Under the pieces are notes generated by a model. That model did not search any database, was not told where the DNA came from, and saw only the letters and a list, made by a program, of their open reading frames with translations. Made by a program: the position numbers and the translations under genes. This document shows, in pieces, positions 5,142 through 48,101 of a stretch of DNA of 64,000 nucleotides. The DNA comes from an uncultured Solirubrobacterales bacterium (GTDB lineage Bacteria; Actinomycetota; Thermoleophilia; Solirubrobacterales; Solirubrobacteraceae). Where the stretch lies: positions 612,520 to 676,519 of the forward strand of contig CAWGZH010000002.1 in the NCBI GenBank assembly GCA_963827045.1, read 5' to 3'. How positions within the stretch are numbered: the first letter of the stretch is position 1; every line of letters begins with the position of its first letter.

Positions 5142-5807
5142 TCATTGCCCGGTCGATGCCCGATCTTCAATGCTGGTCCCAGCCGGGGTTTGCGCCGACG
5201 GGGCGCCGCTGGCCAACAGGACGAGTGCCACACTCAACGCCGCGTTCATGCCCGCCGCTTCATCCTTCTCGGATAGCCGCCACCGCCCGTCCAGGTTCAT
5301 AGGTATTCCGGCACGCGCGATCAATGCCGCGGCGACGATCGAGTTGACAGTAACGGTCACCGACTCCTCGCTTGGGGGCTGAGACGCACACCGCGCGAAG
5401 CTCGCGAGCACGCTTCCGTGGCCGGGCACAGTCGCCGAGTCCTCGCTCAGCGCCTTCAACGCGCCGCGCGCAAAACCATTTGCGAGCACGTTCTCGCGGC
5501 GAGGCACCAGTTCAAGTTTCCATCCGGGGCGCTCTCCTAGTAAGCGGGAGACACGTTCGCGAAGGGGTTGGAGTGGCCGGCTGCGGCCCCGATCGGGCCT
5601 GGCTGTCCCCTCACAGTCGGTCCTGAAGACGACACTCCTCAGACGCGCCGTGTCTGCGACCTCCATCGCCAACAGCACCGCCAACAGCTCGGCCTCGCTG
5701 CTGCTCGCGCACGGCACAAGCTGCCGATGGCGGCCGAGCCCGTTGGTGTCATATGCAATGCCCGCCCAGCCGTCCCGATAGGACGCGTCGGTGTTGAAGT
5801 AGATCAT
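5142..5807 (-). CDS. RNase H1-like protein with C-terminal extension
   Basis: NTDASY, SSSEAELLAV, FRTDC and VPRRENVLANGFA motifs of the RNase HI fold. Confidence 0.75.
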   Translation of the reverse strand: MIYFNTDASYRDGWAGIAYDTNGLGRHRQLVPCASSSEAELLAVLLAMEVADTARLRSVVFRTDCEGTARPDRGRSRPLQPLRERVSRLLGERPGWKLELVPRRENVLANGFARGALKALSEDSATVPGHGSVLASFARCASQPPSEESVTVTVNSIVAAALIARAGIPMNLDGRWRLSEKDEAAGMNAALSVALVLLASGAPSAQTPAGTSIEDRASTGQ

Positions 5808-9204: not shown

Positions 9205-10053
9205 CTAGTCCGAGGCGGATGTTCGGTTCCCGAGACGCGCGGATAGTTCCCGCGTTATGGTGAGAAGCGCATCCTGCGCGGTGCCCACAAGCGTCTCAAG
9301 CGAGGCGTTCTGGGCTGAGGCACTGAGCGAGACTGCGGCGACCGTCTCACCCCACTCGTCTCGCACGGGGGCGGCGAGTGAAATGAGTCCTTGGTGGCAC
9401 TCCTGGTCATCGCGACCGATGCCTCGTTCGCCGACGCGAGCGAGTTCTTCTCGCAGCTCGCCGTCGTGGGTGATGGTGTTGCTGGTGCGGGGTGGGAGCA
9501 CAAGGTCGCCGAGGCGCTCGTCTCGCACATAGTGCGGGAGGTGGGCCAACAGCACCTTGCCCGGGGCGGTGCAGTAGGCGGGCAGGCGCCGTCCCTGGGC
9601 CAGCAATCGGCCGAGCATCGTTTTACCGGCCCCTGTGGCGAGGATTGTGCGCTGCATGACGATCTCCTCCCCGTCGAGGATCGCGATGCTCGCGGTGTAT
9701 GACGTCCGTTGCGCAAGCTCCTCCAAGAATGGCTGGGCGTCTTGCGGCAAACCGATCGAGCTGAGTGTCGCGAGGCCAAGGTCGACGACCTTGACTGTGA
9801 TTCGGTCGCGGCGTGTTGGTGTCGCTTCGAGGTAGCCAAGGGCGCGAAGGGTCGCGATCCGGCGATGCACCCTTGCGCGTCCTACTCCGAGGATGGCGCC
9901 GATCTCAGCGGAGCCGAGTTCCGGCTGCGCCGCTGTGAAACATCCGAGGACGTCGAGGCCGACCTTCAGTGAAAGTGATTGGCGGGGATTGGGCTCGTCG
10001 CGATCCGGGTCGGTGTCTTCCCGGTTGCCGTCTTGATCTGAGGGCTCTGTCAT
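9205..10053 (-). CDS. IclR-family regulator (divergent copy)
   Basis: HTH followed by effector domain: PAYCTAPGKVLLA, GLISLAAPVRD. Confidence 0.85.
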   Translation of the reverse strand: MTEPSDQDGNREDTDPDRDEPNPRQSLSLKVGLDVLGCFTAAQPELGSAEIGAILGVGRARVHRRIATLRALGYLEATPTRRDRITVKVVDLGLATLSSIGLPQDAQPFLEELAQRTSYTASIAILDGEEIVMQRTILATGAGKTMLGRLLAQGRRLPAYCTAPGKVLLAHLPHYVRDERLGDLVLPPRTSNTITHDGELREELARVGERGIGRDDQECHQGLISLAAPVRDEWGETVAAVSLSASAQNASLETLVGTAQDALLTITRELSARLGNRTSASD

Positions 10054-10337
10054 AGCCAGTCATCGAGGTGTGCCTCGGCGATTCGATACAGCGCTCGCCG
10101 GCCGCGTTGGAGGTAGCCGAGCCTCAGCAGGTACTCGGCGTCGTCGGTGACAGTGGACTCGCTGACTGCGGTCATCGCCGCTATCTCGCGTGCCGTCAAC
10201 GCCGGGCGCCTCTCGGAGAAGCACCCCATTACCGCGAGTCGTCGCATGATCCCGGCGTCCTCGCCGGTCTTCGCGAGTGCGGCCATGTCAATTTGGTCCG
10301 CCTTCCCCGGAGCCTCCGGATTTGGGGGCTCCGGCAA
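10050..10337 (-). CDS. IclR HTH-only protein
   Basis: LAVMGCFSERRPALTAREIAAMTAVSESTV...LGYLQRG...YRI; no effector domain; ATGA overlap with the downstream IclR. Confidence 0.7.
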   Translation of the reverse strand: MPEPPNPEAPGKADQIDMAALAKTGEDAGIMRRLAVMGCFSERRPALTAREIAAMTAVSESTVTDDAEYLLRLGYLQRGRRALYRIAEAHLDDWL

Positions 10338-10356: not shown

Positions 10357-11211
10357 TCAGACGGCTTGCTCGTCGTCTCGGCGGTAGCCCAGCCGCGCGG
10401 AGATGTTGTCGGCGGTCGCGACGAGGTGCGGGCCAAGTGCGTTGACAAGCTCCTCTAGGGAGATCATCGAGTTGTGCGCGGCGATATTCACGGCCGCGAC
10501 CACCTCGCGGGACTCGGTACGAACAGGCGCGGAGATCGAGACGAGGCCTTGAGCGAGCTCTTCGTCGTTTACCGCCATGCCCTCCTCGAGCACATGCTCC
10601 AGTTCGGTGCGCAACGCCTTCTTGCTCGTTATCGAGTTGGGTCCGCGACGGGTCAGCGTCATGCCCACGAGCACTTCATCCAGCTCGGCCTCGGGCAGGT
10701 TTGCGAGCAGCACCTTCCCCATCGAGGTGCAGTAGGCCGGCAGGCGCGAGCCCGGTCGCAAGTTGAGATCGATTTGGCTCTGCCCGCGCCGGAAGCTGCG
10801 AGCACGATCGACGTAGAGGATTTCCGGGCCGTCAAGCACAGAAAGGTTCACGGTGTAGGAGGTGCGGTGGCGCAACTCTTCCAGGTAGGGTCGGGAATGC
10901 TCGCGCAGACCGGTCGAGTTCAGCGCGGACATTCCCAGGTCGGTCACACGCAGGCCGAGACGATACTTGCGCGACGCGCCCTGCTCAAGAAAACCAAGGG
11001 CGACGAGCGTGATCACGTAGCGATGTGTCGTGGAGCGACTCATGCCGAGATCGTCGGCTATGTCGGCGATTCCGAGGACGGGACGCTCGGGTGTGAAACA
11101 TCCGAGGATCGCGAGTCCGCGCTCTAGTGATTGCGAGTAGCGTGGCTCGCGAAGGCTCGGTATCGACCACTCGCCTGAATCGGCGCCGGTTAACTGTGTT
11201 ACGCGTGGCAT
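10357..11211 (-). CDS. IclR-family transcriptional regulator
   Basis: AGGAGG RBS; SQSLERGLAIL, MSRSTTHRY, PAYCTSMGKVLLA, ISAPVR. Confidence 0.92.
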   Translation of the reverse strand: MPRVTQLTGADSGEWSIPSLREPRYSQSLERGLAILGCFTPERPVLGIADIADDLGMSRSTTHRYVITLVALGFLEQGASRKYRLGLRVTDLGMSALNSTGLREHSRPYLEELRHRTSYTVNLSVLDGPEILYVDRARSFRRGQSQIDLNLRPGSRLPAYCTSMGKVLLANLPEAELDEVLVGMTLTRRGPNSITSKKALRTELEHVLEEGMAVNDEELAQGLVSISAPVRTESREVVAAVNIAAHNSMISLEELVNALGPHLVATADNISARLGYRRDDEQAV

Positions 11212-11261: not shown

Positions 11262-11771
11262 TCAGATGCGACCCCTAAGCAGCGCGACCACTTGGCTAGC
11301 GCACCGCGACCCGTTCTCAATTGGGTAAAAGACGCGTTGGATGTTCCCGTTTTGTGTGAGAAGGACGATGCGGCAGTAACGGGTGATCCCGTTGCTATCG
11401 ACTTCGGTAGGCAAGGCGAGCGCGGCACCGACACGCATGTCGGTATCACTGAGGAGGTCGTGTGGAATCCGTCCGGCGGTCCTCCGCTCATCTTGGAGGT
11501 CGTGCGGCTCGTTGCTCACTCCAAGCGCACGTACCCGCAGCGCCGAGAGGTCTTCGTGCTGGTGGCAGAATCCCGCTTGAAGCGCGGCGTCCTCCGCTGA
11601 GCTTGAGCGCTCCTCGGGGGAGCCCGAGTAGAAATACACGACCCACCAACCATGCGCGAAGCGGTCAAGCGTCACCGGGTAGCCACCGGCTGCGGTCAGC
11701 TCGACCGCCGGCAGATCACACCCGACGAGGCTTGCTTGCTCCGAGGCGTTCGTGAGTTCGCCGGAACTCAT
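11262..11771 (-). CDS. Peroxiredoxin/BCP-like redoxin lacking the peroxidatic Cys motif
   Basis: LPAVEL, VVYFY, LGVS, LLSD and RIVLL...I..VF redoxin elements present; no PxxxTxxC. Confidence 0.7.
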   Translation of the reverse strand: MSSGELTNASEQASLVGCDLPAVELTAAGGYPVTLDRFAHGWWVVYFYSGSPEERSSSAEDAALQAGFCHQHEDLSALRVRALGVSNEPHDLQDERRTAGRIPHDLLSDTDMRVGAALALPTEVDSNGITRYCRIVLLTQNGNIQRVFYPIENGSRCASQVVALLRGRI

Positions 11772-12113: not shown

Positions 12114-12824
12114 GTGGGCGAGCTTGTGCTGAGGGACCTAGTCAAGCACTACGCGGGCGAGGGCGAGGTCGTCCGCGCGGTCAACGGCGTCTCGTTGACG
12201 GTAGCGGCGGGGCAGCTCGTCGGGCTCTACGGGCCAAGCGGCTCCGGTAAGACGACGCTCCTGATGATGGTCGGGTCGCTGCTCTCGCCCGACAGCGGGA
12301 CGATCACGTTCGACGGCCGTGACATCACACGGATGTCAGCCAAGGAAGCGGCGCTCTACCGTCGCATCGAGGTCGGCTTCGTGCTGCAGTCCTTCACGCT
12401 GAACCTCGCGACATCGGCGTTGAACAACGCCGCGGGCGCGCTGCCCGCTCGTGGCATGACGCCTCGTCAGGCGCGGCGCACTGTCGCCCCGTGGTTCGAT
12501 CAGCTCGGGATCGGCGACCGACTAAAGCAGCGTGCTGGTTCGCTGTCGGGCGGTGAGCGTCAACGAGTCGCGATCATCCGCGCGCTCGCTGGGAAACCGA
12601 AACTGCTGTTGGCTGATGAGCCGACGGCGAGCCTCGACAGCACCCGCTCGCAGGAACTACGCCAGCTTCTCGCGGGCATCTGCCACGAGGAGAGGATTCC
12701 GGGGATCATCGTCACGCATGACCTGGCCGCACGGGAGCACGTCAACAAGGTTTATTCCTTGCACGACGGACATCTCACTGAGGGGCTGCAATCAGACGTG
12801 GGCGCGGCCTCGGACCCTGGATGA
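12114..12824 (+). CDS. ABC exporter ATP-binding subunit (LolD/MacB type)
   Basis: GPSGSGKT, LSGGERQRVAI, LLLADEPT, VTHD. Confidence 0.92.
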   Translation: MGELVLRDLVKHYAGEGEVVRAVNGVSLTVAAGQLVGLYGPSGSGKTTLLMMVGSLLSPDSGTITFDGRDITRMSAKEAALYRRIEVGFVLQSFTLNLATSALNNAAGALPARGMTPRQARRTVAPWFDQLGIGDRLKQRAGSLSGGERQRVAIIRALAGKPKLLLADEPTASLDSTRSQELRQLLAGICHEERIPGIIVTHDLAAREHVNKVYSLHDGHLTEGLQSDVGAASDPG

Positions 12825-15367
12825 CCACGCGTTTGCTAGCCGGCCTTCGACCGAGCGTCCCGTTCTCGCTGTACGCGCAGCAGGTGGGCAAGCGAAAGGG
12901 TCAGGAGCTTCTCGCCGGTGTCGGAATCGCTGTCGGTGTCGCTCTCGTGTTCGGCGTACTTCTCGCAAGCACGAGCGTCACGCGCTCCGCCAGCGAAACG
13001 GTTCGCGGTGTCAGCGGCGGCGCCACGTTGCAGCTCGCGGCACGGTCGCCGACTGGCTTCGACGCGCGGCTCGTTCCCGCCGTGGAACAGCTTGCCGGTG
13101 TGCAGCGCTCGGGCGCCGTGTTGCGGGAGAACACCACGATCGTTGGTCCCACTGGCCGGACCCCGGCGCAGCTGGTGGGCTTCACGGTAGGTGTGATCGG
13201 CCTCGGCGGGTCGAGCACCCGCGCCCTCGCGCAAGGCGCGGTTTCCGAAGCGGGCGGCCTCGTGTTGTCGAGTTCGCTCGCGCGGAGGATCGGGGCGAGG
13301 AGCGGGCAGAGCGTGACGGTCCTCGCGGCCGGTGCCGCCCACAAGATCAGGGTCGTCGAGCTCTTGAGCGAATCGAGATTCGGTGCGCTGGCGGCGAGCC
13401 TGGTCGCTGTCGCTCAAATGTCTGTGGCGCAGACACTCACGGGTCGCGGCGGGCGGGTCACGCAGATCCTCGTAAAGCCGAGCCCAGGCGCAAACGCGGC
13501 CGTCTCCAGAGAGCTTGAGAGGCTCGCAGGCCGCCGCCTTGAAGTGCTCCCCGCGAACAACGAGATCGCGTTGCTGGACGAGGCGTTCAGGCCCAGCGAA
13601 CAGTCAACCGACCTGTTCGCGCTGATAAGCGCGATGGTCGGTTTCCTCCTCGCTTTCAACGCGGTGCTGCTGACAGTCCCAGAGCGTCGTCGCTCAGCCG
13701 CCGAACTGATGATCCTCGGATACGACGCCACTCAGGTCGCGGTGATCGTGATTGTCCAAGCGTTGATCTTGGGGGTCCTCAGCTCGTTCGTTGGGCTCGC
13801 AGTCGGCTATCTCCTCGCGCACACCCTCTTTGGCCAGGCACCTACCTATCTCGCGTTCGCGTTCCCGATCGGTGAACACAAGTCCGCGAGCTTGCTCATC
13901 CTCGTGTTGTCTTTTGCCTGTGGCCTCGGCGCCGCCGTCCTCGCAACGCTCCCGGTCCTCGAACTGTGGCGCAAACGAGCACCCGAGGAGATCCTGCGCG
14001 AGCGCGGCGAGCACGGGCAAAGCATCCGGCCAAGGGTGGTGCTTGTGCTCGCCATCGTCGGCGGCGTGCTGAGTGGGATCGTCGCGCTGCTCGCGCTCGC
14101 CTCCGCGAGCACAACCGTTGCTTGCGGCGTGCTCCTCGCAATCGCGGCGGGCTGCGTGACCCCGATGATTTACCGGCTGGCGATGCGGTCGCTCAGCCCT
14201 ATCGGCGAACGCCGGAAAGGGATGCTCGGCCTCTCGCTCATCGAGCTTGAAACGACGGCTACCCGGTCGATCGCGCTTGCGGCCGTAGGTGCGCTCATCG
14301 TCTATGGCAGCGTCGCGATCGGCGGCGCGCGAGTGGACGTGACACGCGGCCTGGAACACACGATCACCCAATACGAGAGCACAGCGGACGTGTGGGTGAG
14401 CACCGGAAACAACGTGTTCGACACCGACGCGTTCAGGGCGCCCGGTCTCGTGCCGGCACTCACACAGCTCCCAGGGGTCGCTTCCGTGCGCGCCTACCAA
14501 GGCGGGCTGCTCGACGTTGGGAAGCGGCGCCTGTTGATCCGTGCTCACGACCCGCATGTCGGTGTGATGCTCCAGTCGCTCGCGATCGTGCGCGGGAATC
14601 TCGCTCAAGCGAACAAGCGCCTCAGAGAAGGCGGGTGGGCGACAGTCTCGGAAGGTTTCGCCGGGGAACACCACCTCGCTATCGGCGACACTCTTGTGCT
14701 TCCAACGCCATCCGGCCACTTGCGCCTACGTGTCGCGGCCACGACAACGAACCTCGGGTGGCCGCCAGGATTGATCACCCTCTCGAGCACCGACTATCGT
14801 CGGGGTTGGCTCACGAGCGATCCCTCCGCCCTTGAAGTGACGCTCAAGCCCGGCGTCGCCGCATCGAAGGGCAGCCGCGCCGTCCAACACGCGCTTGGGC
14901 GGTTCCCTGGGCTGCAGGCCAGAACAGCCGCACAAGCGAGCGCGGAAGGGATCAGCACCGCGAGGCAGGGCCTGAACAGCCTCGCGCAGATATCGACGCT
15001 GCTGTTGATCGTCGGGGCGGCTGCAATCGCGGCGTCACTCAGCGCCGCGATCTGGCAAGGACGGCTCAGGCTCGCCTCGATGCGGGTCGAGGGCTACGAC
15101 CGCGTTCAGCTTTGGTGCTCGGTTCTGTGGGAGAGCGCGATCCTTCTCACGATCGGGGGCGCGGTCGGTGCGGCGTTTGGACTGTATGGGCACGCGCTCG
15201 CGTCGAGATACCTGCGGGTAACGACAGGCTTCCCCGCCCCGTTCACGGTCGGGGGTAGGCAGTTGCTGCTCACACTGCTCCTGCTCGGCGGAACCTCACT
15301 CGCTGTCGTGGCGCTGCCAGGTATCCGCGCAGTTCAGGTCCCGCTGACGACCGCCTTCGAGGACTAG
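12821..15367 (+). CDS. FtsX/MacB-like ABC permease, 848 aa, two halves
   Basis: TM + large extracellular domain + TM bundle, twice; ATGA overlap with the ATPase stop. Confidence 0.88.
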   Translation: MTTRLLAGLRPSVPFSLYAQQVGKRKGQELLAGVGIAVGVALVFGVLLASTSVTRSASETVRGVSGGATLQLAARSPTGFDARLVPAVEQLAGVQRSGAVLRENTTIVGPTGRTPAQLVGFTVGVIGLGGSSTRALAQGAVSEAGGLVLSSSLARRIGARSGQSVTVLAAGAAHKIRVVELLSESRFGALAASLVAVAQMSVAQTLTGRGGRVTQILVKPSPGANAAVSRELERLAGRRLEVLPANNEIALLDEAFRPSEQSTDLFALISAMVGFLLAFNAVLLTVPERRRSAAELMILGYDATQVAVIVIVQALILGVLSSFVGLAVGYLLAHTLFGQAPTYLAFAFPIGEHKSASLLILVLSFACGLGAAVLATLPVLELWRKRAPEEILRERGEHGQSIRPRVVLVLAIVGGVLSGIVALLALASASTTVACGVLLAIAAGCVTPMIYRLAMRSLSPIGERRKGMLGLSLIELETTATRSIALAAVGALIVYGSVAIGGARVDVTRGLEHTITQYESTADVWVSTGNNVFDTDAFRAPGLVPALTQLPGVASVRAYQGGLLDVGKRRLLIRAHDPHVGVMLQSLAIVRGNLAQANKRLREGGWATVSEGFAGEHHLAIGDTLVLPTPSGHLRLRVAATTTNLGWPPGLITLSSTDYRRGWLTSDPSALEVTLKPGVAASKGSRAVQHALGRFPGLQARTAAQASAEGISTARQGLNSLAQISTLLLIVGAAAIAASLSAAIWQGRLRLASMRVEGYDRVQLWCSVLWESAILLTIGGAVGAAFGLYGHALASRYLRVTTGFPAPFTVGGRQLLLTLLLLGGTSLAVVALPGIRAVQVPLTTAFED

Positions 15368-15407
15368 AAGGGGCCAGGCGGCACGGTGCAATGCCCGACC
15401 CGAACTC

Positions 15408-16052
15408 ATGACCGCTGACCTCGACCGCGACGACTCCCGCGAGGGACCAGTTTCGATTCGGGGAGAAGGGCGCGCTCGCCTAGAAAGCGCTGTGACGGAC
15501 TGTTTCGGCGAGTCTGGTCACCTCACAATTAGCGGCGTCTGTGGCAAGGCTGGCGCAAGCATCGGGACCATGTACCACCACTTCCCGAATGGCCTCGATG
15601 AAATGCTCTCGGGGGTGTATCTCGACCTCAGAATCGAGTCTGATGAACGCGTGCTTGACGAGCTAACCCGCCACGACTCGTTTGAGCAAGGGATCAATGC
15701 TGCGATTCGGGCGCACCTTTCATGGCTGGCTGCCAACCCCTCGCGGGCGCTCTTCCGGCTGTGCTTTAACCCTCTGTGGCTGACGGTTGACGATCGCGAG
15801 GCTCTGGCCTGCGCAGCTGAGCGTGTTGAGCAGACGGCTGATGCCTGGTACGACACTCACGTCAAGAACGGTGAGGCACGGCCGATGCCGCACACCACCT
15901 ATTGGGCGCTGCTGTTGGGGCCGGCTCAATTGCACGTCAAGATGCTGCTCGCAGACGGTGATCGTCCCGGTGTTCGCGCCGCCATCCGGCAAGCTGAGCC
16001 CCCACTCATGCTTGCCGGATCGCGCGCACTATTGGCTGACCCGCGGCTTTAG
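15408..16052 (+). CDS. TetR/AcrR-family regulator
   Basis: LTISGVCGKAGASIGTMYHHF HTH. Confidence 0.8.
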   Translation: MTADLDRDDSREGPVSIRGEGRARLESAVTDCFGESGHLTISGVCGKAGASIGTMYHHFPNGLDEMLSGVYLDLRIESDERVLDELTRHDSFEQGINAAIRAHLSWLAANPSRALFRLCFNPLWLTVDDREALACAAERVEQTADAWYDTHVKNGEARPMPHTTYWALLLGPAQLHVKMLLADGDRPGVRAAIRQAEPPLMLAGSRALLADPRL

Positions 16053-17342
16053 TATCACCCTTGAGCCTGCATGTGGTGTGACAAGCGCGCTGCGCCAGCT
16101 AACCCGCTCGATTGTCAGGCTCGCTCGCTCTATGCGTCGGTTCCTTACGAGGGTCTGTAGCACTGTGCGGAGCTCAAGCTGGGCGAGGTGGCGGCCTGGG
16201 CATATCTTCCGTCCACCGCCCCAGGGAAGCCAAGTCGGGGAGGCGCCGCCGCCGAGGAATCGCTCCGGCTGGAACTGCTGTGGGTTGGTGAATAGCTCCG
16301 GCTCGTGGTGCATCAGATAGGTACAGCCGAGAAGATGCACGGGCGGCTCGTAGGTCCATCCGTTGATTTCGATGGGTTGTGCAACGGCGCGCGGCGCGGT
16401 GAAAAGGAACACTGGGCGATGGCGTAGAACCTCGCTGATCGTGGCTGTCAAATACTCGTTGTTGCCGCTGGCGATCTCTGAAGCGAGGCGGTCTTGCACG
16501 GCCGGGTTGTGTGCCAGGAGCTGCACCGCCCACGCGAGGGTGGAGGCGGTCGTCTCGTGTCCGGCGATGAGGACCGACACGAGGTTGTCGCGAAGTTCTT
16601 GATCGGACATCGGCTGCCCGTCTGGTCGGTGCGCGTCGAGCAGCATTTCGAGCATGTCAGGGTGCTGGCCGCTGTCGTGTCGGCGCTCGCGTATTAGGGT
16701 CGCTATCAGCGCGTCAACTTCCTCGCGATGGCCGATGAATGTGCGCCATGTGTGACACCAGCCCGGGAGAAAGCGCAATCGAGGTTGCTGCAAGACGGGG
16801 CTTGCCGCGACTGAGAGCATTCTGAACATCGCACCGTGCAGAGAGCGCACGGTCGAAGTCCTCTCGCCGAACACACTTTTCAGGATCACTCTCAGCGTGA
16901 TCGCGGCGAACCTGGGGTAGGTCGCGATCACCGTGTCCGTCGGCCAGTGTGACATCTCGCGCTCGGCGAGCTGCGCCACCAGGGCGGTGTGCTCGTCTAC
17001 CAGTCGGCGATGGAATGCGGGGGTGATCGCGTTGCGGACCTGTAGGTACTCCTCGCCCTCTTTCAGCAGGAAGGATGTCTTCCCGAAAAGGGGGGCGGTT
17101 ATCGCGGCGCCGCGGCCCGCGTGCAGCACTGTCAAAGGGGCGGTGATGACAGTGCGTATGTCTTTCGCGTCCGCGAGAAAGATGAGCGGAGGCATCCCTA
17201 TCGGGCGGACGGTGAAGCGCCGCCCGATGTGGGCTCGGCACCATTCGAGGTACTCGAGCGGACGGACACGACAAGCGAGTGTCTGTAGCGCGGAAGGGAT
17301 CGGTGCTGTCGGGGGAAGGGTGGGTGGGTGAACGTGTCGCAT
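16029..17342 (-). CDS. Cytochrome P450
   Basis: AGHETT (I helix), EVLR (ExxR), PERF, heme motif WGGGRKICPG; GAGGAG RBS. Confidence 0.93.
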   Translation of the reverse strand: MRHVHPPTLPPTAPIPSALQTLACRVRPLEYLEWCRAHIGRRFTVRPIGMPPLIFLADAKDIRTVITAPLTVLHAGRGAAITAPLFGKTSFLLKEGEEYLQVRNAITPAFHRRLVDEHTALVAQLAEREMSHWPTDTVIATYPRFAAITLRVILKSVFGERTSTVRSLHGAMFRMLSVAASPVLQQPRLRFLPGWCHTWRTFIGHREEVDALIATLIRERRHDSGQHPDMLEMLLDAHRPDGQPMSDQELRDNLVSVLIAGHETTASTLAWAVQLLAHNPAVQDRLASEIASGNNEYLTATISEVLRHRPVFLFTAPRAVAQPIEINGWTYEPPVHLLGCTYLMHHEPELFTNPQQFQPERFLGGGASPTWLPWGGGRKICPGRHLAQLELRTVLQTLVRNRRIERASLTIERVSWRSALVTPHAGSRVILKPRVSQ

Positions 17343-17360
17343 TTTGTCTCCTCATGGGGT

Positions 17361-18503
17361 TTAGGTTGAGCGCTGGGCGTAGGCGATCCGCCACACGCGC
17401 AGGATGGGAAGTAGAAGCCGGGAGAGCGATCCCCCGTGGGCGAGTAGGAGGCGCGTGCTGTCTCGCAAGGCGGGTGACCACGCGCTGTCCTTTGACAAAT
17501 ACATGGCGGCCATGCAGGCAACGATGAGAACGTGCCGCTCGCTGTCTGCCAGCTCGTGTGCCTCTTGCATGGAGCGGCTCAGGAGCGCCGCTGTGCGTCG
17601 GGTCGCGAACTCCACCGTCGGGTAATGCGCGACGTAGCTGTGATCGCCGTTGATCTCATCCTCGGCCTGATCGACGTAGCTGTCGAGCATCGTCGTGGCC
17701 CCCGAAATCCACGGGAAGTACGCCCGGTGAACACGAGTGATCTCCGTGTCGGCGAGGGAGGACTTCGTGGCGAGCGCGAAAAGCGCATGGACGGTCAGCG
17801 ACGCGCTTGCCGCGCCGGTCAGCTCGAACCACATCGCCTCGTGGCCACCGGGGAACTCCTGGCGTGCCCACCCCCGCAAGGTGGCGTCACGACGCTCGCC
17901 GTCAAGGTCGTGGTTGATCGCGAGGACTTGGGCTCGGGTGGCCTCCTGGATCAGCAGCGGCTGCACAGCCGCAAAGGACGGCAGCCGCCGGCACGCCGAG
18001 CGGCACTCCCTGACAAGACTGTCGAGGTAGCCGCCGTCGTTGCTCCACGGGTGATACCGGTAATAGTCAGAGAGCGGTGTATCCGGTTCCAGCGCGTCGA
18101 TGAGAGCTAAGTGCAACTGGCGGCCGTTTACCACACCCCTCTCGGCGCCGTGCTCATTGACACTGTCCAAAAAGTCCCACATGATCTCGTAGGCAACGAG
18201 AAGGCGCAGGAGGTTCGTGTCGCGCGCCCTCGGCAGGATGCAGAACAGGGCGGCGCCGTCGGTGTGACCCCTCTTGCGGGCGAGAGAGCTGAGCGCGTCC
18301 TGCCGGATCGCGGCGGCCGGTATAGCTGTCGCGCGGGCTCTCCAGTAGTGAACCTCGCGTGCGACTGCCGGGAGAGCCCAAGCCAGCTCTCGCGTCGCCG
18401 CTTGCGCGAGGACGCGCAATTGCCGTGTTTTTAGTGAAGCAGGCTGCGGGTGCCGTGTCCGCCGGGACTCAGCTTGCGGTGCGGGTTTTGGCTGTGGGCA
18501 CAC
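17361..18503 (-). CDS. YtpB/DUF2600-like (tetraprenyl-beta-curcumene synthase family) terpene synthase
   Basis: IP...RQDALSSL..KRGH..GAALF, YEIMWDFLDSVNE and LDSYVDQAED...DHSYVAHY resemble YtpB Asp-rich metal-binding motifs. Start uncertain. Confidence 0.8.
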   Translation of the reverse strand: MCPQPKPAPQAESRRTRHPQPASLKTRQLRVLAQAATRELAWALPAVAREVHYWRARATAIPAAAIRQDALSSLARKRGHTDGAALFCILPRARDTNLLRLLVAYEIMWDFLDSVNEHGAERGVVNGRQLHLALIDALEPDTPLSDYYRYHPWSNDGGYLDSLVRECRSACRRLPSFAAVQPLLIQEATRAQVLAINHDLDGERRDATLRGWARQEFPGGHEAMWFELTGAASASLTVHALFALATKSSLADTEITRVHRAYFPWISGATTMLDSYVDQAEDEINGDHSYVAHYPTVEFATRRTAALLSRSMQEAHELADSERHVLIVACMAAMYLSKDSAWSPALRDSTRLLLAHGGSLSRLLLPILRVWRIAYAQRST

Positions 18504-21018
18504 GCACGATGAGGTATCCCGGTAGGGCTATTAGTATGAGAGCGGTTGCGGTGAGAAATATGAACGTGGTCAGGGCGGTGACTGGTTCGATGTTGAGGCT
18601 TGTGGGGAATCCCGTGACGGTTTGCAGCGCGTGGCTGAGTAGGAGCTGCCCGTAGATCCCGAACACCGCACCGGTGAGGCAACCGACCGTAAGCAGTATC
18701 GCCGTTTCCCAAAGCAGCCAGCGCCAGATGACACCCTTCGGGATGCCTTGCCCTCTCAAGTCCTCCATCAACTTTCGGTGTTCTGAGATGAGTGAGCCGA
18801 GTGCGGCGAGCATTGCGATGATTGCGGCGATGAGGACGAGTACCCGGATTTGTGTGAGGCGGGAGAGTCCTTGGGCGGCGAGCTTGTAGTGCAGTCGCTC
18901 TCGTTCGCTAGCGGTTTGGACTGTGAGGCCGGTGTTGGGGCCGAGGGCGGCTTGTGCCTCGCGGCGGACTGTGCCAGGGGCCACGCCTGGGGTGGTGTGG
19001 ATCTCGTATGCGCTTGGGTCTGTTGAGGCCCAGGCTGTGGCGTAGTCTTGGCTGTTGAGGACGATCGCTCCTGGTGGCCATCCGAGGTTCGTTGTCAGCG
19101 CCGCGACACGGAACGTCTCAGGTCGTGGTGAGGGGAGCGTGAACGCCTCCCCGACACGCAAATGATTTTCGTCGGCGAGGGCTTGGGAGAGCGCCACCCA
19201 TCCGTGTTCTTTCAACCGGCGTGTAGCCACGGTCAGGTTGCCACCGGTGATCTCGCTCGCCGGGATCGGCGCACTGCTTTCCGCTGGTGGGGCGAGGACC
19301 CACACCCTGCGCGGGCCCCAATCAAGAAAGCTCCCGCGGTAAACACCGACCCCATTCACACCGGGCAGAGCCGCGAGCCGGTGGGCGGCCGTAGGGTCGG
19401 TGAAGGGTGTCGTCGCGAACGCGTTCGTTTCACCACGCGTACTGACCCAAACATCAGCCGTCGAGTCAATGTCATGTGCTGAACTGTCAAGGCCGTGCTG
19501 AAGATTGCGCTGCGCACCACTACTCGCCACGACCGCGAACACAGCCACACCCCCGATCGCCACAACCGCAAGCGAGAGCACACGGGTCTTGGGGCTACGC
19601 AAAATTGTGGCCGCTATGTCAGGAGACGCACGATTGAGAACGGGCTGCAGGAGCTCAAACGCGTTGACCGCCGCGCTGAATACAAACGGCAGCCCACACA
19701 GAAGGGCGATCACCAAAGTGAAGCTGCCCAGCGTTGATGCTGCGGGCGCGAGAAACAAGATGACAGTTGTGGCCGCGAGGCTCACGATTCCCGCGATGAG
19801 CCGGGCGGCGGTCCAAGAGCTTTGAGGCGCTCGGCGTTGGCGGTCGGTCCTGAACACGTCACGCAACGGCCAGAGGACTCCGACAAACGCGGCGATTGTC
19901 CCGGCCAGGACAGCGACCACAACGCTCTGCCAATCGATAATCCTGGCATCGCCGACCGGAAACGCGAAGGACAGATAGCCGGGCGTGGAGTGAAGGACCG
20001 CGACGGACACGATGTCGCCGAGCACCAGGCCGATCGCGCACGCAAGGACGCTCAATACCACTGCGTCGAAGGAGAGGCTTTGCAGCAGCATCTTTGAATT
20101 CGCGGACTCTAGTTGCAGGATCGCGAGTACCCGTCGTCGTCGTGGGACGGTGATGAGGATGGCGCAGAGGGCGAGCATGAAGCCGACGATTGCGCTGATG
20201 ACGGAGAACAGTGTCTCGCTCTGGTTCTCCGGTGACTCCGCGACAGCGAACAGGCGGGCGTCGAAGCTCGCTGGCTCCAAGTTCACATTCCACACCCGTG
20301 CCTGCTCGCGGAGCCCTTCAAGCACTTGATGCGTATGTCCTGGCTCGGCTTGAACGAACACGCGGGTCACACGGTGGCGCATGCTGGTGAGCTGTTGGGC
20401 GTAGAGGATGGGTGCGATCAGCACCGGGCTGTTCACGAGGCTCCCGATATCACGCCTGGCGAGCACGGTCCCGAACAGGGTGGGGATGATCCTCGCCCCG
20501 ACCTGCACGCTCACAGTTTCAAGGGGTCCCGCCCCGATCCCTGCTGCTACGGGTTCGGGGAGCGCGATCGTTTCGAACTTCGCGAGCGTTGAGGGCTTGA
20601 ACCTTTTCAACGACGGGCTGCTGAAATGCTCAAACCTTGGGTCCACACCAACAAGATCAACAGCACGCCTCCGCCCCGTAGGACCGATCACTGCTGCCGG
20701 GTACTCCAAGATCGGCAACGCCACCCTCACACCCCGAACACGCCGCGCATCGAGCAGCAGGTCTTCGCTGACACCATTCGGGCCGCGCGCCATCAACTGA
20801 AACTGAGCACGCCCCACGACCTGGCTACTCAACGCCCGCACCGACCCCGACAGGCTCGTGCTCGCTACCTGGGAGGCGAACAACAAACCCACCCCAATCG
20901 CAATCCCAGCCACCGCAAACAAATCCAACAACACCACACGCCGCGACCCAAACCGCAAACGAAACAACCCCAACACACCACCCACACCCAGCGACCACGA
21001 CCGGCGACGCTGTGTCAT
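18469..21018 (-). CDS. FtsX/MacB-like ABC permease, 849 aa
   Basis: Same architecture as 12821-15367; close paralog at 53769-56318. Confidence 0.88.
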   Translation of the reverse strand: MTQRRRSWSLGVGGVLGLFRLRFGSRRVVLLDLFAVAGIAIGVGLLFASQVASTSLSGSVRALSSQVVGRAQFQLMARGPNGVSEDLLLDARRVRGVRVALPILEYPAAVIGPTGRRRAVDLVGVDPRFEHFSSPSLKRFKPSTLAKFETIALPEPVAAGIGAGPLETVSVQVGARIIPTLFGTVLARRDIGSLVNSPVLIAPILYAQQLTSMRHRVTRVFVQAEPGHTHQVLEGLREQARVWNVNLEPASFDARLFAVAESPENQSETLFSVISAIVGFMLALCAILITVPRRRRVLAILQLESANSKMLLQSLSFDAVVLSVLACAIGLVLGDIVSVAVLHSTPGYLSFAFPVGDARIIDWQSVVVAVLAGTIAAFVGVLWPLRDVFRTDRQRRAPQSSWTAARLIAGIVSLAATTVILFLAPAASTLGSFTLVIALLCGLPFVFSAAVNAFELLQPVLNRASPDIAATILRSPKTRVLSLAVVAIGGVAVFAVVASSGAQRNLQHGLDSSAHDIDSTADVWVSTRGETNAFATTPFTDPTAAHRLAALPGVNGVGVYRGSFLDWGPRRVWVLAPPAESSAPIPASEITGGNLTVATRRLKEHGWVALSQALADENHLRVGEAFTLPSPRPETFRVAALTTNLGWPPGAIVLNSQDYATAWASTDPSAYEIHTTPGVAPGTVRREAQAALGPNTGLTVQTASERERLHYKLAAQGLSRLTQIRVLVLIAAIIAMLAALGSLISEHRKLMEDLRGQGIPKGVIWRWLLWETAILLTVGCLTGAVFGIYGQLLLSHALQTVTGFPTSLNIEPVTALTTFIFLTATALILIALPGYLIVRVPTAKTRTAS

Positions 21019-21731
21019 GCGTGCTGCCTGTCGGTGTCTGCGATGGGGACGAGGGAGTAGCGGGGTTGATACTCCTGAAGTCGTCCGTCACACAGTTCGT
21101 GGATGCGATCGGCAAAGCTCGCGACCATTAGATCGTGCGTGGTGAGCAGCACTGTCACGCCTCGCTCCGCGCAGCTCTCGCGGAGCATTTGGAGAACTTC
21201 GACAGTGCGGTCGGTGTCAAGGCTCCCCGTCGGCTCGTCCGCCAGCACGAGTCGCGGTTCGGTTGATAGAGCGCGCGCGATCATGACCCGTTGCCGCTCG
21301 CCCATTGAGAGCTCCTCGGTGCGATGGTCGAGGCGGTCCCCGAGACCGAGTTGGATCATCAGCGGTTCGATCGTGGCGCTCGCCTCCCGCGCTTTGCTGA
21401 GCAGCAGTCGGATCGAGGCGGTCTTGATCGCCTTTATGCCTGGGAGCATCATCTCGGGCGACGCGACGACACCGATCTGCTTTAGCCGGTATTCGTCCAG
21501 GTCTCCTCCGGAGAGCCCGCCGATGTCCTGTCCGTTCACGAGCACCGTGCCGCTGTCAGCCCGTTCCTTCGCGGCGATGATTTCGGTGAGTGTCGTCTTG
21601 CCGGAGCCGCTTGGCCCATACAACGCGACGAACTCGCCGTCGGCGACGGTCATCGACACGCCGTCGAGCGCGCGGATCGGGTCGCCCTTCCCGACTTGGT
21701 AGTGCTTGACAAGGTTTCGCAGCTCGAGCAC
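21015..21731 (-). CDS. ABC exporter ATP-binding subunit
   Basis: GPSGSGKT, LSMGERQRV, VLADEPT, TTHD; ATGA overlap with the permease. Confidence 0.92.
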   Translation of the reverse strand: MLELRNLVKHYQVGKGDPIRALDGVSMTVADGEFVALYGPSGSGKTTLTEIIAAKERADSGTVLVNGQDIGGLSGGDLDEYRLKQIGVVASPEMMLPGIKAIKTASIRLLLSKAREASATIEPLMIQLGLGDRLDHRTEELSMGERQRVMIARALSTEPRLVLADEPTGSLDTDRTVEVLQMLRESCAERGVTVLLTTHDLMVASFADRIHELCDGRLQEYQPRYSLVPIADTDRQHA

Positions 21732-21733
21732 GG

Positions 21734-22465
21734 TTATCCGTGCCCACGTCTAGCGTGGAGGCGAGTCTCGTTCAGTCGAAGGACGGTTTTGTCTTTGGGG
21801 GTGATGGTGGCTGCGTCGAGGGAGAGGACGCGGTTGGCGATGAGGAGTGCGTCGTGCTCGGAGGAGGCAGCGAGGACGGCTGAGCCGCACTCCTCCGCCA
21901 GTTCAAGCAGCAGCTCTCCGGCGTGGCGTGTGCCTGTCGGTCCGAGCCTGTCGAGTAGGTCATCGACGATCATCAGGCGCGGGCGGCGGACGAATCCTTT
22001 CGCGTAGGCGACCAACACCTGCTCCCAGTCGGAGAGCTGCCCCCATTGCTGTTTTGCGCAGTGGGCGATACCGACGCGCTCCAGCGCTTCGACCGCGAGA
22101 TCGGTCGCCTCGCGCATCCCGCGACCCGCCGACACCGGGAGCGCCACATATTTCGCGACTTCGAACTCCTCCACCCCGCCACGGTGCATCCAAGCGACGC
22201 GGTCTTTGCGCAAGTCCACACGCTGATCGCCCGAAAGCGACGCGAGGCTCTGACCCTCGATGAACACTTGCCCCTCAGCAGGCTCAAGCAATCCCGCCGC
22301 GACTTCCAACAACGTCGTCTTACCGGTGCCCGGCGCGGCGTGCACGCCGACGACCTCACCGGGCGCGACCGTCAACCCGACATCCTCCAACACCCGCCAA
22401 CGGCGTTTGCCACGCCGAACAAACACCCCAACACCGTCCAACACTAGGGACGGTTCAACGTGCAT
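21734..22465 (-). CDS. Degenerate ABC ATPase-like protein, copy 1
   Basis: Walker A HAAPGTGKT, signature LSDWE, Walker B MIVDD, no H-loop His (AASSE). Confidence 0.75.
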   Translation of the reverse strand: MHVEPSLVLDGVGVFVRRGKRRWRVLEDVGLTVAPGEVVGVHAAPGTGKTTLLEVAAGLLEPAEGQVFIEGQSLASLSGDQRVDLRKDRVAWMHRGGVEEFEVAKYVALPVSAGRGMREATDLAVEALERVGIAHCAKQQWGQLSDWEQVLVAYAKGFVRRPRLMIVDDLLDRLGPTGTRHAGELLLELAEECGSAVLAASSEHDALLIANRVLSLDAATITPKDKTVLRLNETRLHARRGHG

Positions 22466-23060
22466 CCGGCTCCTCAGGCTCCTCAAGCAGCAGCCCGGGG
22501 CCGCGTTTTTCGAGCATCTGCCTCGTCTTTTTGAGTTCGTCCACGCGGGCGCTTCTCGACGCCACAGCCTGCCTGTGGACGACGTAGCGCATGAGACCAC
22601 GGAACTCCGAGCTGTCGGCCGAACCGAACGCGCCGCGTCTTCGTTCCTTGTTGAGTTTCTGCCGCGCGGCGTCTCGTGCCTCGCAGGCGTCCTCCTCCTT
22701 CTCTTTGAGCACTTCAAGGATCTTCGGGATTTCGCTCTCGTCCGCGTGTTCAATCCAGAGCAGCATTCCGTCGCGATCCGGTGGGGGCTCACGGGCGATT
22801 TCCTCGGCCCAGCGACGAAGCTCAACCAGGCCCGCGTCGGTCAGCTCATAGATGTCTTCGGATTTCTGGGAGCCCTCCTCGATGAGATGAATCAGGCCCT
22901 GCCGGGCGAGGCGGACTGTGTTTTTGTAGGCCACCGACCGCGACCATTCTTCCTCCGGGTGCTCGACCTCGAGGCGGGCCCTGATGTGCACGGGGCTCCC
23001 CGGTCGATCGACCAATAGCCTGAGAACCGCCAGGTCTGCGTGTGGTCTTCGCTTAGCCAT
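22455..23060 (-). CDS. PadR-family regulator with C-terminal coiled coil
   Basis: LAVLRLL, AYKNTVRLARQGLI, IYELTDAG..EL.RW. Confidence 0.8.
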   Translation of the reverse strand: MAKRRPHADLAVLRLLVDRPGSPVHIRARLEVEHPEEEWSRSVAYKNTVRLARQGLIHLIEEGSQKSEDIYELTDAGLVELRRWAEEIAREPPPDRDGMLLWIEHADESEIPKILEVLKEKEEDACEARDAARQKLNKERRRGAFGSADSSEFRGLMRYVVHRQAVASRSARVDELKKTRQMLEKRGPGLLLEEPEEPDAR

Positions 23061-23270
23061 CCGAGCCGTCGATCGTAGCCCAAAACGGGGCGATTGTACG
23101 CCCATACAGAATTGTTCGTTCTGCCCGACAGGCGAGTGCTGACGGGCGCAACCGCGCGCCACCAAGCAGCACCAGTCAGAAACACCGGCCACGAACCTCA
23201 CGCCCAAGCAAGCGGAGAAGCCCCATGCCAACACACGCCCCAGGTTGGGCAGGCGCCCCGGTGAGCCCAC

Positions 23271-23975
23271 TCAAGCCGAAGCGGAGAAGCTCACCACTTT
23301 CCTTGCCTTCGGGGTGATGGTGCCCGCGTCGAGAGAGAGGACGCGGTTGGCGATGAGGAGTGCGTCGTGCTCGGATGAGGCAGCGAGGACGGCTGAGCCG
23401 CACTCCTCCGCCAACTCAAGCAGCAGCTCCCCGGCTAGGCGTGTGCCTGTCGGCCCGAGCCTGTCCAGCAGATCATCGACCACCATCAAGCTGGGGCGGC
23501 GGACAAAGCCTTTCGCGAACGCGACCAACACCCGCTCCCAATCTGAGAGCTGCCCCCACTGCTGTTTTGCGCAATGGGCGATACCCACACGCTCCAACGC
23601 CTCGACCGCGAGATCGGTCGCCTCCCGCATCCCCCGACCCGCCGACACCGGGAGCGCCACAAACCTCGCGACTTCGAACTCCTCCACCCCACCACGATGC
23701 ATCCAAGCGACGCGATCTTTGCGCAAGTCCACACGCTGATCCCCCGACAGCGACGCGAGACTCTGACCCTCGATGAACACTTGCCCCTCAGCAGGCTCAA
23801 GCAATCCCGCCGCGACTTCCAACAACGTCGTCTTACCGGTGCCCGGCGCGGCGTGCACGCCGACGACCTCACCGGGCGCGACCGTCAACCCGACATCCTC
23901 CAACACCCGCCAACGGCGTTTGCCACGCCGAACAAACACCCCAACACCGTCCAACACCAACACGGGTTCACCCAC
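23271..23975 (-). CDS. Degenerate ABC ATPase-like protein, copy 2
   Basis: Near-identical to 21734-22465; GGAGG RBS before the GTG start. Confidence 0.75.
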   Translation of the reverse strand: MGEPVLVLDGVGVFVRRGKRRWRVLEDVGLTVAPGEVVGVHAAPGTGKTTLLEVAAGLLEPAEGQVFIEGQSLASLSGDQRVDLRKDRVAWMHRGGVEEFEVARFVALPVSAGRGMREATDLAVEALERVGIAHCAKQQWGQLSDWERVLVAFAKGFVRRPSLMVVDDLLDRLGPTGTRLAGELLLELAEECGSAVLAASSEHDALLIANRVLSLDAGTITPKARKVVSFSASA

Positions 23976-24107
23976 CACAAACCTCCGATATGGATAGGCA
24001 CAGCTATACCGCATACCGGTTAGAGAGCGACGGCTCGGGTTTGTGTAAATCCCGATGCTGCTGGTTATAGGTTGCTTATCTGTGCGCGGGAGGCCGCGCG
24101 ATCCTGC

Positions 24108-35618: not shown

Positions 35619-36297
35619 ATCCCATCCGGGCAGCGCGGGATGCTGGACGTGATCGTTCCCGCCGGGTTGTATGAGAAGTACAAGCTGCTGATCCGAGGGA
35701 GCCGTGCGTGGTTGACTGGTTATAGGGCAGGATGATCGGCCTGAGCCCGCAGCGGCTCAGTCGAACCGGCGGTGGTCTCCCGGCCCAGGGCCGTAATGTC
35801 ATACCCGCGCTTCTTCGCTGCCGCCACGAGCACGTCGTGCGCCGTGAGGAACCCGCGCGCCGCATCGAAGATGGCACCAGATCGAGACTCAAACAGCGCC
35901 GCACGTTCCCGGATCGCCCTCGGCTTCCCATCCAACGACACCCACGAACCGCTTATCGGTGTCCCTCTCGGTGTAGAACGCCTCTAGCGCCTCACGTTCT
36001 TGGAAAGCCCCTGCCGCCTTATATAGGTCGCGACGAGGAGGCTCAATCGCCGGGTCGCTGAAGCAGTGCTCCCGGTCGCCGTAGCGCTCGATGAACTCCG
36101 ACACCGGATCAAGCATTGTCAACGGCCAGGCGTGTGTGAAATCGTGAGCCCTGGATGCGTCGCATGGCTTGGCGTGACAGGAGCCCGAGAACTTCGTCAA
36201 GGAGCTGCTGGTCGGCGTCGGTTACACGGCGCCGTTGACGGAGGAGTGCTACGACCAGGCCCGCAATCACGAGCGACTCCCCGACAAACTAGTCGAA

Positions 36298-36627
36298 GCT
36301 ACCTGGGAGGCGAACAACAACCCCACCCCAATCGCAATCCCAGCCACCGCAAACAAATCCAACAACACCACACGCCGCGACCCAAACCGCAAACGAAACA
36401 ACCCCAACACACCACCCACACCCATGAGCCGCATCGAGAGCCGCCGAGTCACGATAGGACGCCTCGCGAGCAGGCTGCCGCCGCTGACCGATTGAATCGG
36501 GACTGTGCGCGAGCCGCGGGCACCTTGCCCAGAGCGTACGGCCTACGCCCCGGGGGAGCCGGCGCGGAGCCTCGCGCACGCTGATCGGTTGCCGCGCCAC
36601 CCATCACGAGCTTCGGACGAGGACGAC
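36298..36627 (-). repeat. 330-bp inverted copy of 53594-53923 (permease upstream region plus first 155 nt of its CDS)
   Basis: Paired coordinates sum to 90221 at both ends; mismatch GAGAGCCG vs GAGGTCCG seen; identical translations in the ORF track. Confidence 0.9.
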
Positions 36628-44646: not shown

Positions 44647-44706
44647 GCATGGAAGCCTCACACAAACGCCCCCCTCGGACCACCCTAACTACGTTCAAGT
44701 GGCTCT

Positions 44707-44749
44707 GGAGACCGGCATCCAGCCTCCACGCCTTTCGCGGCTCTGTTCC
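44707..44749 (-). repeat. 43-bp inverted repeat, partner at 48198-48240
   Basis: 36/43 identity by manual alignment, mismatches mostly transitions. Confidence 0.7.
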
Positions 44750-48099: not shown

Positions 48100-48101
48100 T
48101 C

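Follow-up and report, generated by a model that had tools for sequence, protein, structure and literature searches.

A conserved gene module pairing a DUF2600 terpene synthase homologue with a type VII ABC transporter in Solirubrobacterales

Class IB terpene synthases of the DUF2600 family have been characterised in a few Bacillaceae only, and the roles suggested for them are bacitracin sensitivity through substrate build-up, spore hydrophobicity and protection from oxidative stress. The Bacillus subtilis member YtpB (BsuTS, tetraprenyl-beta-curcumene synthase) is encoded within the sigma-M cell-envelope stress operon ytpAB, and its product is located in the outer layers of the spore, where it sets hydrophobicity and is surface-exposed when the covering polysaccharide or crust is missing. 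Here, we describe a DUF2600 gene that lies in an operon with an ATP-binding cassette (ABC) transporter, on a stretch of 64,000 nucleotides (nt) from contig CAWGZH010000002.1 of an uncultured Solirubrobacterales bacterium (referred to as the window; G+C ~64%). The core unit consists of five genes, encoding a PadR-family regulator, a degenerate ABC ATPase, a canonical ABC ATPase, a double-FtsX permease with ten transmembrane (TM) helices and the DUF2600 protein, and it recurs in ~150 Solirubrobacterales loci belonging to two deep paralogous clades. No synthase-transporter module was described in the literature searched for DUF2600, YtpB, class IB synthases and type VII ABC transporters. The parts belong to known families, and the conserved combination, the degenerate ATPase (pseudo-ATPase) and the behaviour of this pseudo-ATPase are, as far as can be told, new.

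The window synthase homologue resembles YtpB and the Bacillus alcalophilus enzyme BalTS in family, in its Asp-rich motifs, in solubility and in the presence, in the host order, of a pool of the likely substrate, C35 prenyl diphosphate. In contrast to these enzymes, its motif 1 ends in Glu rather than Asp and its motif 2 carries Ser in place of Tyr, both changes being invariant in the clade, and its gene is part of an ABC-transporter operon, whereas the Bacillaceae genes come after a gene that may be ytpA-like and have no transporter beside them. The sporulene/baciterpenol pathway combines HepST, YtpB and SqhC; the window has no SqhC partner, and the sub-clade to which it belongs has a cytochrome P450 instead.

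On the transporter side, the permease YbbP of Escherichia coli has ten TM helices and binds two YbbA ATPases, and a role proposed for it, together with TesA, is the removal of hydrophobic compounds from the membrane through mechanotransmission (PMC12646458). The window shares with YbbAP-TesA a single-chain permease of ~800-850 amino acids (aa) with ten TM helices and MacB-type (Porter/Sabre) domains between TM1-2 and TM7-8, a LolD/YbbA-like ATPase, and the genetic pairing of a transporter with a lipid-active enzyme. However, the partner enzyme here would be cytoplasmic and biosynthetic, whereas TesA is periplasmic and hydrolytic; moreover, no sequence match to YbbP was detectable, an extra degenerate ATPase and a PadR are encoded, and the host is presumed to be monoderm. 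BceAB of Firmicutes likewise belongs to the type VII ABC transporters and has a 10-TM permease and multi-copy modules, and the substrate of YtpB has been linked to bacitracin and BceAB. BceB differs in having one large extracellular domain (TM7-8) and operates with the BceRS two-component system, whereas the module described here combines two MacB-type domains with a one-component PadR and a pseudo-ATPase. FtsX-fold TM domains, MacB_PCD domains and LolD-like ATPases are also common to LolCDE and MacAB, and the removal of lipid-anchored substrates from the outer leaflet by LolCDE provides a mechanistic template; those systems are two-chain or homodimeric with periplasmic or outer-membrane partners (LolA, MacA-TolC), and a link to a terpene synthase is not known for any of them.

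Conservation of the five-gene module

The genes of the window were assigned with Pfam and NCBIfam profiles (Table 1). The distribution of the module was then surveyed with the synthase as anchor, in 80 loci encoding relatives with 48-71% identity, all from metagenome-assembled genomes of Solirubrobacterales/Thermoleophilia, on which the window proteins were mapped by tblastn. As a result, the permease was found to adjoin DUF2600 in 74 of the 75 loci with sufficient upstream sequence (71 directly upstream on the same strand, three divergent within 4 kb), and the arrangement is therefore far beyond chance. The canonical ATPase was present in 76 and the degenerate ATPase in 73 of the 80 loci, PadR was detectable by tblastn in 47, and the stop of the permease gene and the start of the synthase gene overlapped in 48 of 71. 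A reciprocal survey comprised 80 further loci picked by permease family instead of synthase. Among these, DUF2600 was located directly downstream of the permease in 68-70 of 77, the degenerate ATPase was found in 76 of 80, and a PadR-like gene in 69. The module falls into two deep clades, designated type 1 and type 2. Type-2 synthases are 30-35% identical to those of type 1, and their genes are arranged in the order PadR-like gene, degenerate ATPase, ATPase, permease and DUF2600, with 4-nt overlaps; in L075, overlaps of 4 nt are found throughout. The module appears to be translationally coupled. Synthase and permease occur together whichever of the two is used as anchor, and they do so in both of the deeply diverged clades.

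A preliminary description of the window, made from its letters and open reading frames (ORFs), had tied the synthase to a minus-strand MacB-type transporter, a PadR and degenerate ATPases. Synteny in ~150 loci bears out this part; conservation of the neighbourhood extends to the five minus-strand genes and not to the plus-strand ATPase, permease and TetR-like ORF that had been drawn into the same system. The only group compared beyond Solirubrobacterales/Thermoleophilia was a control of 12 Bacillaceae loci with BalTS-type genes. No adjacent ABC ATPase or FtsX permease was found in these 12 loci, and transporter coupling is therefore, judged against them, a specific feature of the Solirubrobacterales lineage. 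The gene upstream of BalTS is a 260-aa ORF.

A genome often carries several modules, and single chromosomes have two or three, as on the chromosome OY970161.1 (L007 and L098) and the contig CAVXBL010000008.1 (L008, L022 and L119). In L046, L052 and L057 (Conexibacter-like, Thermoleophilaceae), the transporter operon is divergent from DUF2600, a rearrangement that the linkage has survived.

All ten genes listed in the preliminary description were recovered by the Pfam/NCBIfam search at the same positions and on the same strands, and their tight packing was confirmed (overlaps of 11, 4 and 35 nt; gaps of 2 and 18 nt). An independent soil metagenome run (X1) further backs the gene order, as its contigs cover the region at an even depth of ~10. 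A single X1 contig spans positions 14665-18676, with the Perm1, TetR, P450 and DUF2600 junctions, and another (22424-23364) bridges the ATPase-PadR-ATPase segment. For the main junctions, the possibility that the odd arrangement arose through chimeric assembly was thus rejected.

Table 1 Features of the window discussed in the text (positions within the 64,000-nt stretch)
Feature	Position	Strand	Assignment or remark
dNBD-A, degenerate ABC ATPase, upstream copy	23271-24014	-	Pfam ABC-like ATPase, 61 bits
PadR-family regulator, ~200 aa, subfamily-1 size	22455-23060	-	First conserved module gene; Pfam PadR, 22.9 bits
dNBD-B, degenerate ABC ATPase	21734-22465	-	Conserved module member; Pfam ABC-like ATPase, 60 bits
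Canonical LolD/MacB-type ABC ATPase	21015-21731	-	Pfam, 106 bits; signature LSMGERQ
Perm2, type VII ABC permease, 849 aa	18469-21018	-	Pfam FtsX x2 and MacB_PCD x2
DUF2600 / class IB large-terpene synthase homologue	17361-18503	-	Pfam, 318 bits, E 6e-95
Cytochrome P450, E-class	16029-17342	-	PF00067, 180 bits
Second ABC ATPase	12114-12824	+	Pfam
Perm1, double-FtsX permease, 848 aa	12821-15367	+	Pfam FtsX
TetR-like ORF	15408-16052	+	TetR_N, 16.2 bits (cut-off 24)
AhpC/TSA-like redoxin	11262-11771	-	Downstream neighbour
IclR regulator	10357-11211	-	Downstream neighbour
Helix-turn-helix (HTH) fragment	10050-10337	-	Downstream neighbour
Second IclR	9205-10053	-	Downstream neighbour
Perm3, intact inverted paralogue of the module permease	53769-56318	+	88% aa, 83-96% nt identity to Perm2
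Permease 5' fragment, 349 nt	36279-36627		97% identical to the Perm3 5' region
RVT_3 gene	5142-5807		
RCC1-repeat (beta-propeller) protein, 1244 aa	24729-28463	+	Divergent from the module
911-aa NHL/fibronectin-III repeat protein, then 2003-aa ORF	41911-50528	+	2003-aa ORF without Pfam match

Features of the module proteins and the accessory P450

The assignment of the synthase gene to DUF2600, proposed in the preliminary description, was confirmed against PF10776 with a score far above the cut-off of 25 bits. The protein aligned with the crystal structure of BalTS (PDB 5yo8) over 321 residues (43-363; E 5.6e-46, ~29% identity), and by sequence it is a clear class IB (YtpB/BalTS-type) terpene synthase homologue with conserved metal-binding motifs. 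Class IB motifs are DYLDNLxD (motif 1) and DY(F,L,W)IDxxED (motif 2), and the activity of BalTS requires all six Asp residues and Mg2+ (PMC5939612). The corresponding window motifs read DFLDSVNE and DSYVDQAED. When the window protein was aligned with BalTS and 89 homologues taken from the retrieved loci, the clade consensus was D[FY]LDxxxE and DS[Y]VDxxED, in which the acidic positions are kept. Motif 1 retains its first two Asp residues without exception and has Glu at the third position in 90/90 clade members, a conservative change, but mutagenesis of BalTS established only that each Asp is needed. The acidic residues of motif 2 are conserved in 90/90 (D), 88/90 (D), 75/90 (E) and 90/90 (D) members, and Tyr is replaced by Ser in 90/90. 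This pattern is what would be expected from purifying selection on a working diphosphate-ionising site. Hydropathy indicated a soluble protein with no hydrophobic segment. The length of its C-terminus lies between those of BalTS, which forms an acyclic product, and the cyclising BsuTS, so the product cannot be predicted.

Perm2, the module permease, matched FtsX (50 bits) and MacB_PCD (37 bits) twice each. Ten TM helices were predicted from hydropathy only (residues 28-46, 273-291, 319-337, 360-385, 407-425, 433-451, 480-498, 726-744, 768-792 and 820-838), and the two MacB-type extracytoplasmic domains are predicted to comprise ~225 residues each. When Perm2 alone was searched against PDB, only MacB was matched (E 0.048), while a profile of type-2 and Perm1 permeases, built without Perm2 and from sequences 33-35% identical to it, matched LolF, LolC, LolE and MacB structures with E 3e-6 to 2e-4. 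YbbP chains were absent among the matches at E<=1 in both searches. The extracytoplasmic domains are conserved like the TM core (0.68-0.69 versus 0.70-0.74), which would sit better with a single endogenous substrate than with an arms race. These domains were also checked for the hypervariability that would mark an arms race with antibiotics, and none was seen.

The window holds further permease sequence. Perm3 differs from Perm2 in its first ~31 residues, is situated 33 kb from the module and has no ATPase or DUF2600 gene alongside, and a separate 5' fragment closely resembles it (Table 1). Within the module, the permease repeat segment occupies positions 20108-20990, and metagenome contigs branch at the repeat boundary, 20990.

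A census of ATPase motifs covered 155 catalytic and 228 degenerate sequences. The catalytic ATPases retain all motifs, with LSMGERQ as the family-typical signature. The Q-loop Gln has been lost in the sub-lineage of the window, where Ser, His, Pro or Ala takes its place (L002, L005, L008, L009 and L018), and is retained in most orthologues. Both degenerate ATPases of the window, dNBD-A and dNBD-B, were rightly called so in the preliminary description: they retain the Walker A motif GKTT and lack the Q-loop Gln, the LSGGQ signature (LSDWE instead), the catalytic Glu (VDD) and the H-loop His. Among the 228 degenerate sequences, GK[ST]T is kept in 94-98%, the Q-loop, the signature and the H-loop His are absent, and the catalytic Glu is usually absent. 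Active site and signature are thus both degenerate. These proteins are as likely to serve in regulation or as scaffolds, perhaps with PadR, as to belong to the transporter.

The two window copies share 91% aa and 93.5% nt identity, the latter over 647 nt, and dNBD-A is a recent paralogue of dNBD-B. Doubling of this gene was observed in 27 of 82 loci, usually with the copies flanking padR (L002, L003, L007, L008, L011, L012, L014, L018, L029, L033, L062, L073, L079 and others), and the copies are inverted in L033. Within a genome, the copies (670-805 nt) are 98.7-100% identical at the nt level in at least 14 species, and orthologues of different species share 40-60% of residues. The near-identity of the copies points to ongoing gene conversion or repeated duplication (concerted evolution). 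Direct repeats of this kind could act as a recombination substrate through which the padR repressor gene might be deleted by loop-out. In ~9 loci, a ~265-aa signal-peptide protein is encoded between the copies (e.g. L002 3892-4698, minus strand); it is not conserved across the family and is a possible extracytoplasmic partner of the transporter.

The PadR sequence on its own scored below the Pfam cut-off of 27 bits, and a profile of type-1 PadR orthologues matched PadR/AphA structures with E 2e-9 to 6e-8. Similarly, the type-2 regulator gave no Pfam match as a single sequence, and its profile matched AphA/PadR structures with E 7e-15. The two regulators are homologous over their full length (hhalign probability 99.1%). 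The PadR operator ATGT-N8-ACAT was present upstream of padR in 1 of 108 loci, with no shared palindrome, and consensus scans for promoters and terminators yielded fewer sites than shuffled controls and were hence uninformative.

The P450 encoded after the synthase contains the heme-thiolate motif WGGGRKICPG, EXXR in the form EVLR and the I-helix motif AGHETT. Its best match among solved structures was CYP170A1, the albaflavenone monooxygenase of Streptomyces coelicolor (PDB 3dbg; E 1e-24), which is encoded beside a terpene synthase and acts on the product of that synthase; the relationship is distant, however, and the substrate of CYP170A1 is a C15 sesquiterpene. The P450 gene adjoins the synthase gene in 48 of 78 type-1 loci and 2 of 80 type-2 loci, immediately 3' of it when present, the start lying 18 nt after the synthase gene in the window. 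Its inclusion in the system by the preliminary description thus stands for the loci that carry it and not for the core: the P450 is an accessory, putative tailoring enzyme, optional rather than core. In the sub-clade without P450, the module is located beside housekeeping genes (ArsA-like, trpE, trpD and HtrA).

Possible functions of the module

The reading that we tentatively favour, with a probability somewhat short of even, is that the synthase makes a long-chain terpene, which the type VII ABC transporter then draws out of the membrane. The sequences show the gene identities, the conservation of motifs and module and the reciprocal association between permease and synthase; we infer that the enzyme is active and on which substrate, in which direction and to what end transport runs, and what the pseudo-ATPase does. 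The soluble DUF2600 enzyme would ionise a long all-trans prenyl diphosphate, most likely the C35 heptaprenyl diphosphate already made for menaquinone MK-7 (alternatively a C25 or C30 diphosphate), and the resulting C25-C35 hydrocarbon, acyclic or monocyclic, would partition into the membrane. In loci with a P450, that enzyme would oxygenate this terpene. The transporter, acting at the outer face by mechanotransmission, would extract the terpenoid and pass it to the wall or the cell surface, and PadR, possibly with the pseudo-ATPase, would set expression. In the sub-clade of the window, the module is extended by the P450 and normally also by genes for an AhpC/TSA redoxin and an IclR. Conexibacter and Solirubrobacter have MK-7(H4) as their main quinone, so heptaprenyl diphosphate is available and no dedicated prenyltransferase gene would be needed in the window. 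In agreement with the preliminary description, neither a prenyltransferase nor a squalene-hopene-type (SqhC) cyclase was found among the 41 window ORFs scanned, and the annotated recurrent neighbours of related loci likewise contained no SqhC-type cyclase domain.

If this reading is true, a biosynthetic partner would join the known jobs of type VII ABC transporters, which are cell division, lipoprotein release, efflux and lipid hydrolysis with TesA. A synthase hard-wired to a transporter, a pseudo-ATPase and a regulator offers a testable handle on the purpose of large terpenes and on the movement of insoluble products. Solirubrobacterales are abundant in soils and deserts and carry several module copies per genome, and the product could therefore be a quantitatively important, so far overlooked envelope lipid or biomarker. 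A more far-reaching version would see a synthase-extractor machine as a new functional class of type VII ABC transporters, delivering C25-C35 polyprenes to a hydrophobic antioxidant layer at the surface or wall of desiccation- and UV-exposed soil actinobacteria, with the pseudo-ATPase and PadR as a one-component "flux sensor" of transporter load, a soluble analogue of BceAB-BceS signalling. This version is speculative, and we consider it unlikely.

Several observations weigh against extraction of a terpene by the module. Type VII transporters are not known to accept a substrate from a cytoplasmic enzyme, and any hand-over must therefore take place by way of the bilayer. The presence of several paralogous modules in one genome, and of a PadR within the operon, is more typical of stress or detoxification efflux. 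At the level of residues, the last Asp of motif 1 is replaced by Glu in every clade member, the catalytic ATPase of the window has Ser in place of the Q-loop Gln, and the degenerate ATPase, with both its active site and its signature lost, does not match the usual heterodimer, in which one site is dead. An extracytoplasmic acceptor protein was not identified, with no conserved secreted partner among the annotated neighbours. Finally, no RNA runs with the window sequence were found, the sequence occurring only in soil DNA metagenomes. The word "export" used in the preliminary description is itself unsuited, as MacB-type transporters do not perform cytoplasmic export in the usual sense.

The main rival explanation, itself unlikely, is that the module serves envelope stress or antibiotic resistance. 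Here the BceAB-like transporter would protect the target or remove the drug at the lipid-carrier cycle, DUF2600 would drain the heptaprenyl diphosphate pool as a decoy or competitor for drugs that bind undecaprenyl diphosphate and for phosphatases instead of making a useful product, and PadR would derepress the operon under stress. Loss of ytpB in B. subtilis sensitises cells to bacitracin through accumulation of the C35 diphosphate, and a functional link to BceAB has been discussed; in a later study, however, heptaprenyl diphosphate accumulation did not inhibit BceAB. The position of ytpB in the envelope-stress operon also agrees with such a role. The 10-TM topology is common to Perm2 and BceB, but two MacB-type domains are present rather than the single BceB-type domain, and their variability is not elevated. 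The modules occur in multiple copies per genome, as on the chromosome and contig named above, and BceAB-type modules are multi-copy in Bacillus as well. PadR regulators commonly control efflux and detoxification operons, and the redoxin neighbour suits the theme of stress, but a sensor kinase or response regulator was not evident among the annotated recurrent neighbour clusters, only part of the neighbours having been scanned. Furthermore, in 48 loci the synthase is immediately followed by a dedicated P450, which suggests that its product is of importance.

Still less probable is a reading in which DUF2600 is no terpene synthase in vivo and instead binds prenyl diphosphate as a regulator or adaptor of the transporter, or acts as an enzyme on another diphosphate lipid (Z-polyprenyl diphosphate or a decaprenyl-type carrier), with the transporter handling that lipid or carrier. 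The lineage-invariant changes from Asp to Glu and from Tyr to Ser, each in 90/90 members, are in line with this, but the conserved metal-binding acidic residues argue for diphosphate ionisation chemistry and the homology to BalTS runs over the full length. The coupling to the transporter and pseudo-ATPase is obligate, unlike in any characterised terpene synthase. The type-2 DUF2600 gene of L037 is followed by a cis-prenyltransferase gene and one for a patatin-like lipase, which would suit another lipid substrate, but such a cis-prenyltransferase neighbour was found in only 1 of the 86 type-1 and early type-2 loci tested. In L037 (15569-18549, minus strand), the genes after DUF2600 encode the cis-prenyltransferase (PF01255, 241 bits), the patatin-like phospholipase and a GGDEF-EAL protein; this layout, seen in one locus only, recalls the ytpA (lipase)-ytpB pair of B. 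subtilis.

Neighbouring genes and the plus-strand cassette

In the wider family, the synthase or P450 gene is followed on the same strand by genes for a small IclR-HTH protein, an AhpC/TSA-like redoxin and an IclR regulator. In the tblastn survey, IclR was located within the locus in 32/80 and 29/80 loci and the redoxin in 14/80. The IclR of the window is 72% identical to a representative (L068) and 63-81% identical to the IclR of the best-matching loci. In the window, a plus-strand block consisting of an ATPase, Perm1 and the TetR-like ORF separates the P450 from these conserved redoxin and IclR neighbours. Because the block splits an otherwise conserved P450-(AhpC/TSA)-IclR order, the plus-strand ATPase and Perm1 are a lineage-specific inserted cassette outside the conserved unit.

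Apart from the window, the cassette was found in this place only in L167 (86% synthase identity) and L168 (96%), its two closest relatives, and in 0/80 of the wider DUF2600-anchored loci. No close relatives of Perm1 were obtained with a single-sequence scan, and those described here came from an alignment-based scan. Perm1 shares 46% identity with type-2 permeases and 35% with Perm2, and its nearest relative, in L087 (68%), is likewise part of a bare ATPase-permease pair without DUF2600. The cassette thus looks like a type-2 module from which PadR, the degenerate ATPase and DUF2600 are missing.

The TetR-like ORF is a weak match, with no stretch passing the TetR_N cut-off on its own, and no homologue of it was found in the 160 survey loci. 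The slot that it occupies between the convergent Perm1 and P450 genes (window 15368-16028) is hypervariable, although the flanks align well: it holds the TetR-like ORF in the window and an unrelated 192-aa RVT_3-like (RNase H-like) ORF in L168 (2513-3091), and is empty in L167 (2603-2656). Conservation of the TetR-like ORF beside Perm1 was considered and rejected, as it resembles neither the ORF that follows the L087 permease nor the slot gene of L168. Another RVT_3 gene is present elsewhere in the window (Table 1).

The picture of two exporters and two sensors drawn in the preliminary description thereby reduces to one transporter and one PadR, with IclR as a further frequent neighbour. Its full model, a P450-oxidised lipid signal pumped by both MacB-type exporters and sensed by PadR and TetR, draws on the adjacency of all genes in the window and on the retention of the plus-strand exporter in the two closest relatives, but it is very improbable and largely refuted by comparative genomics, given the absence of the cassette from the wider loci, the way it splits the P450-redoxin-IclR order, a TetR-like ORF that is sub-threshold, strain-specific and replaceable, and the lack of any support for signalling.

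Repeat proteins are encoded elsewhere in the window. The gene of the RCC1-repeat protein, divergent from the module, contains several internal families of tandem DNA repeats with periods of 225 nt and ~180 nt. The 911-aa NHL/fibronectin-III repeat protein and the 2003-aa ORF after it have an atypical codon-position GC and were excluded by a filter on GC at third codon positions (GC3).

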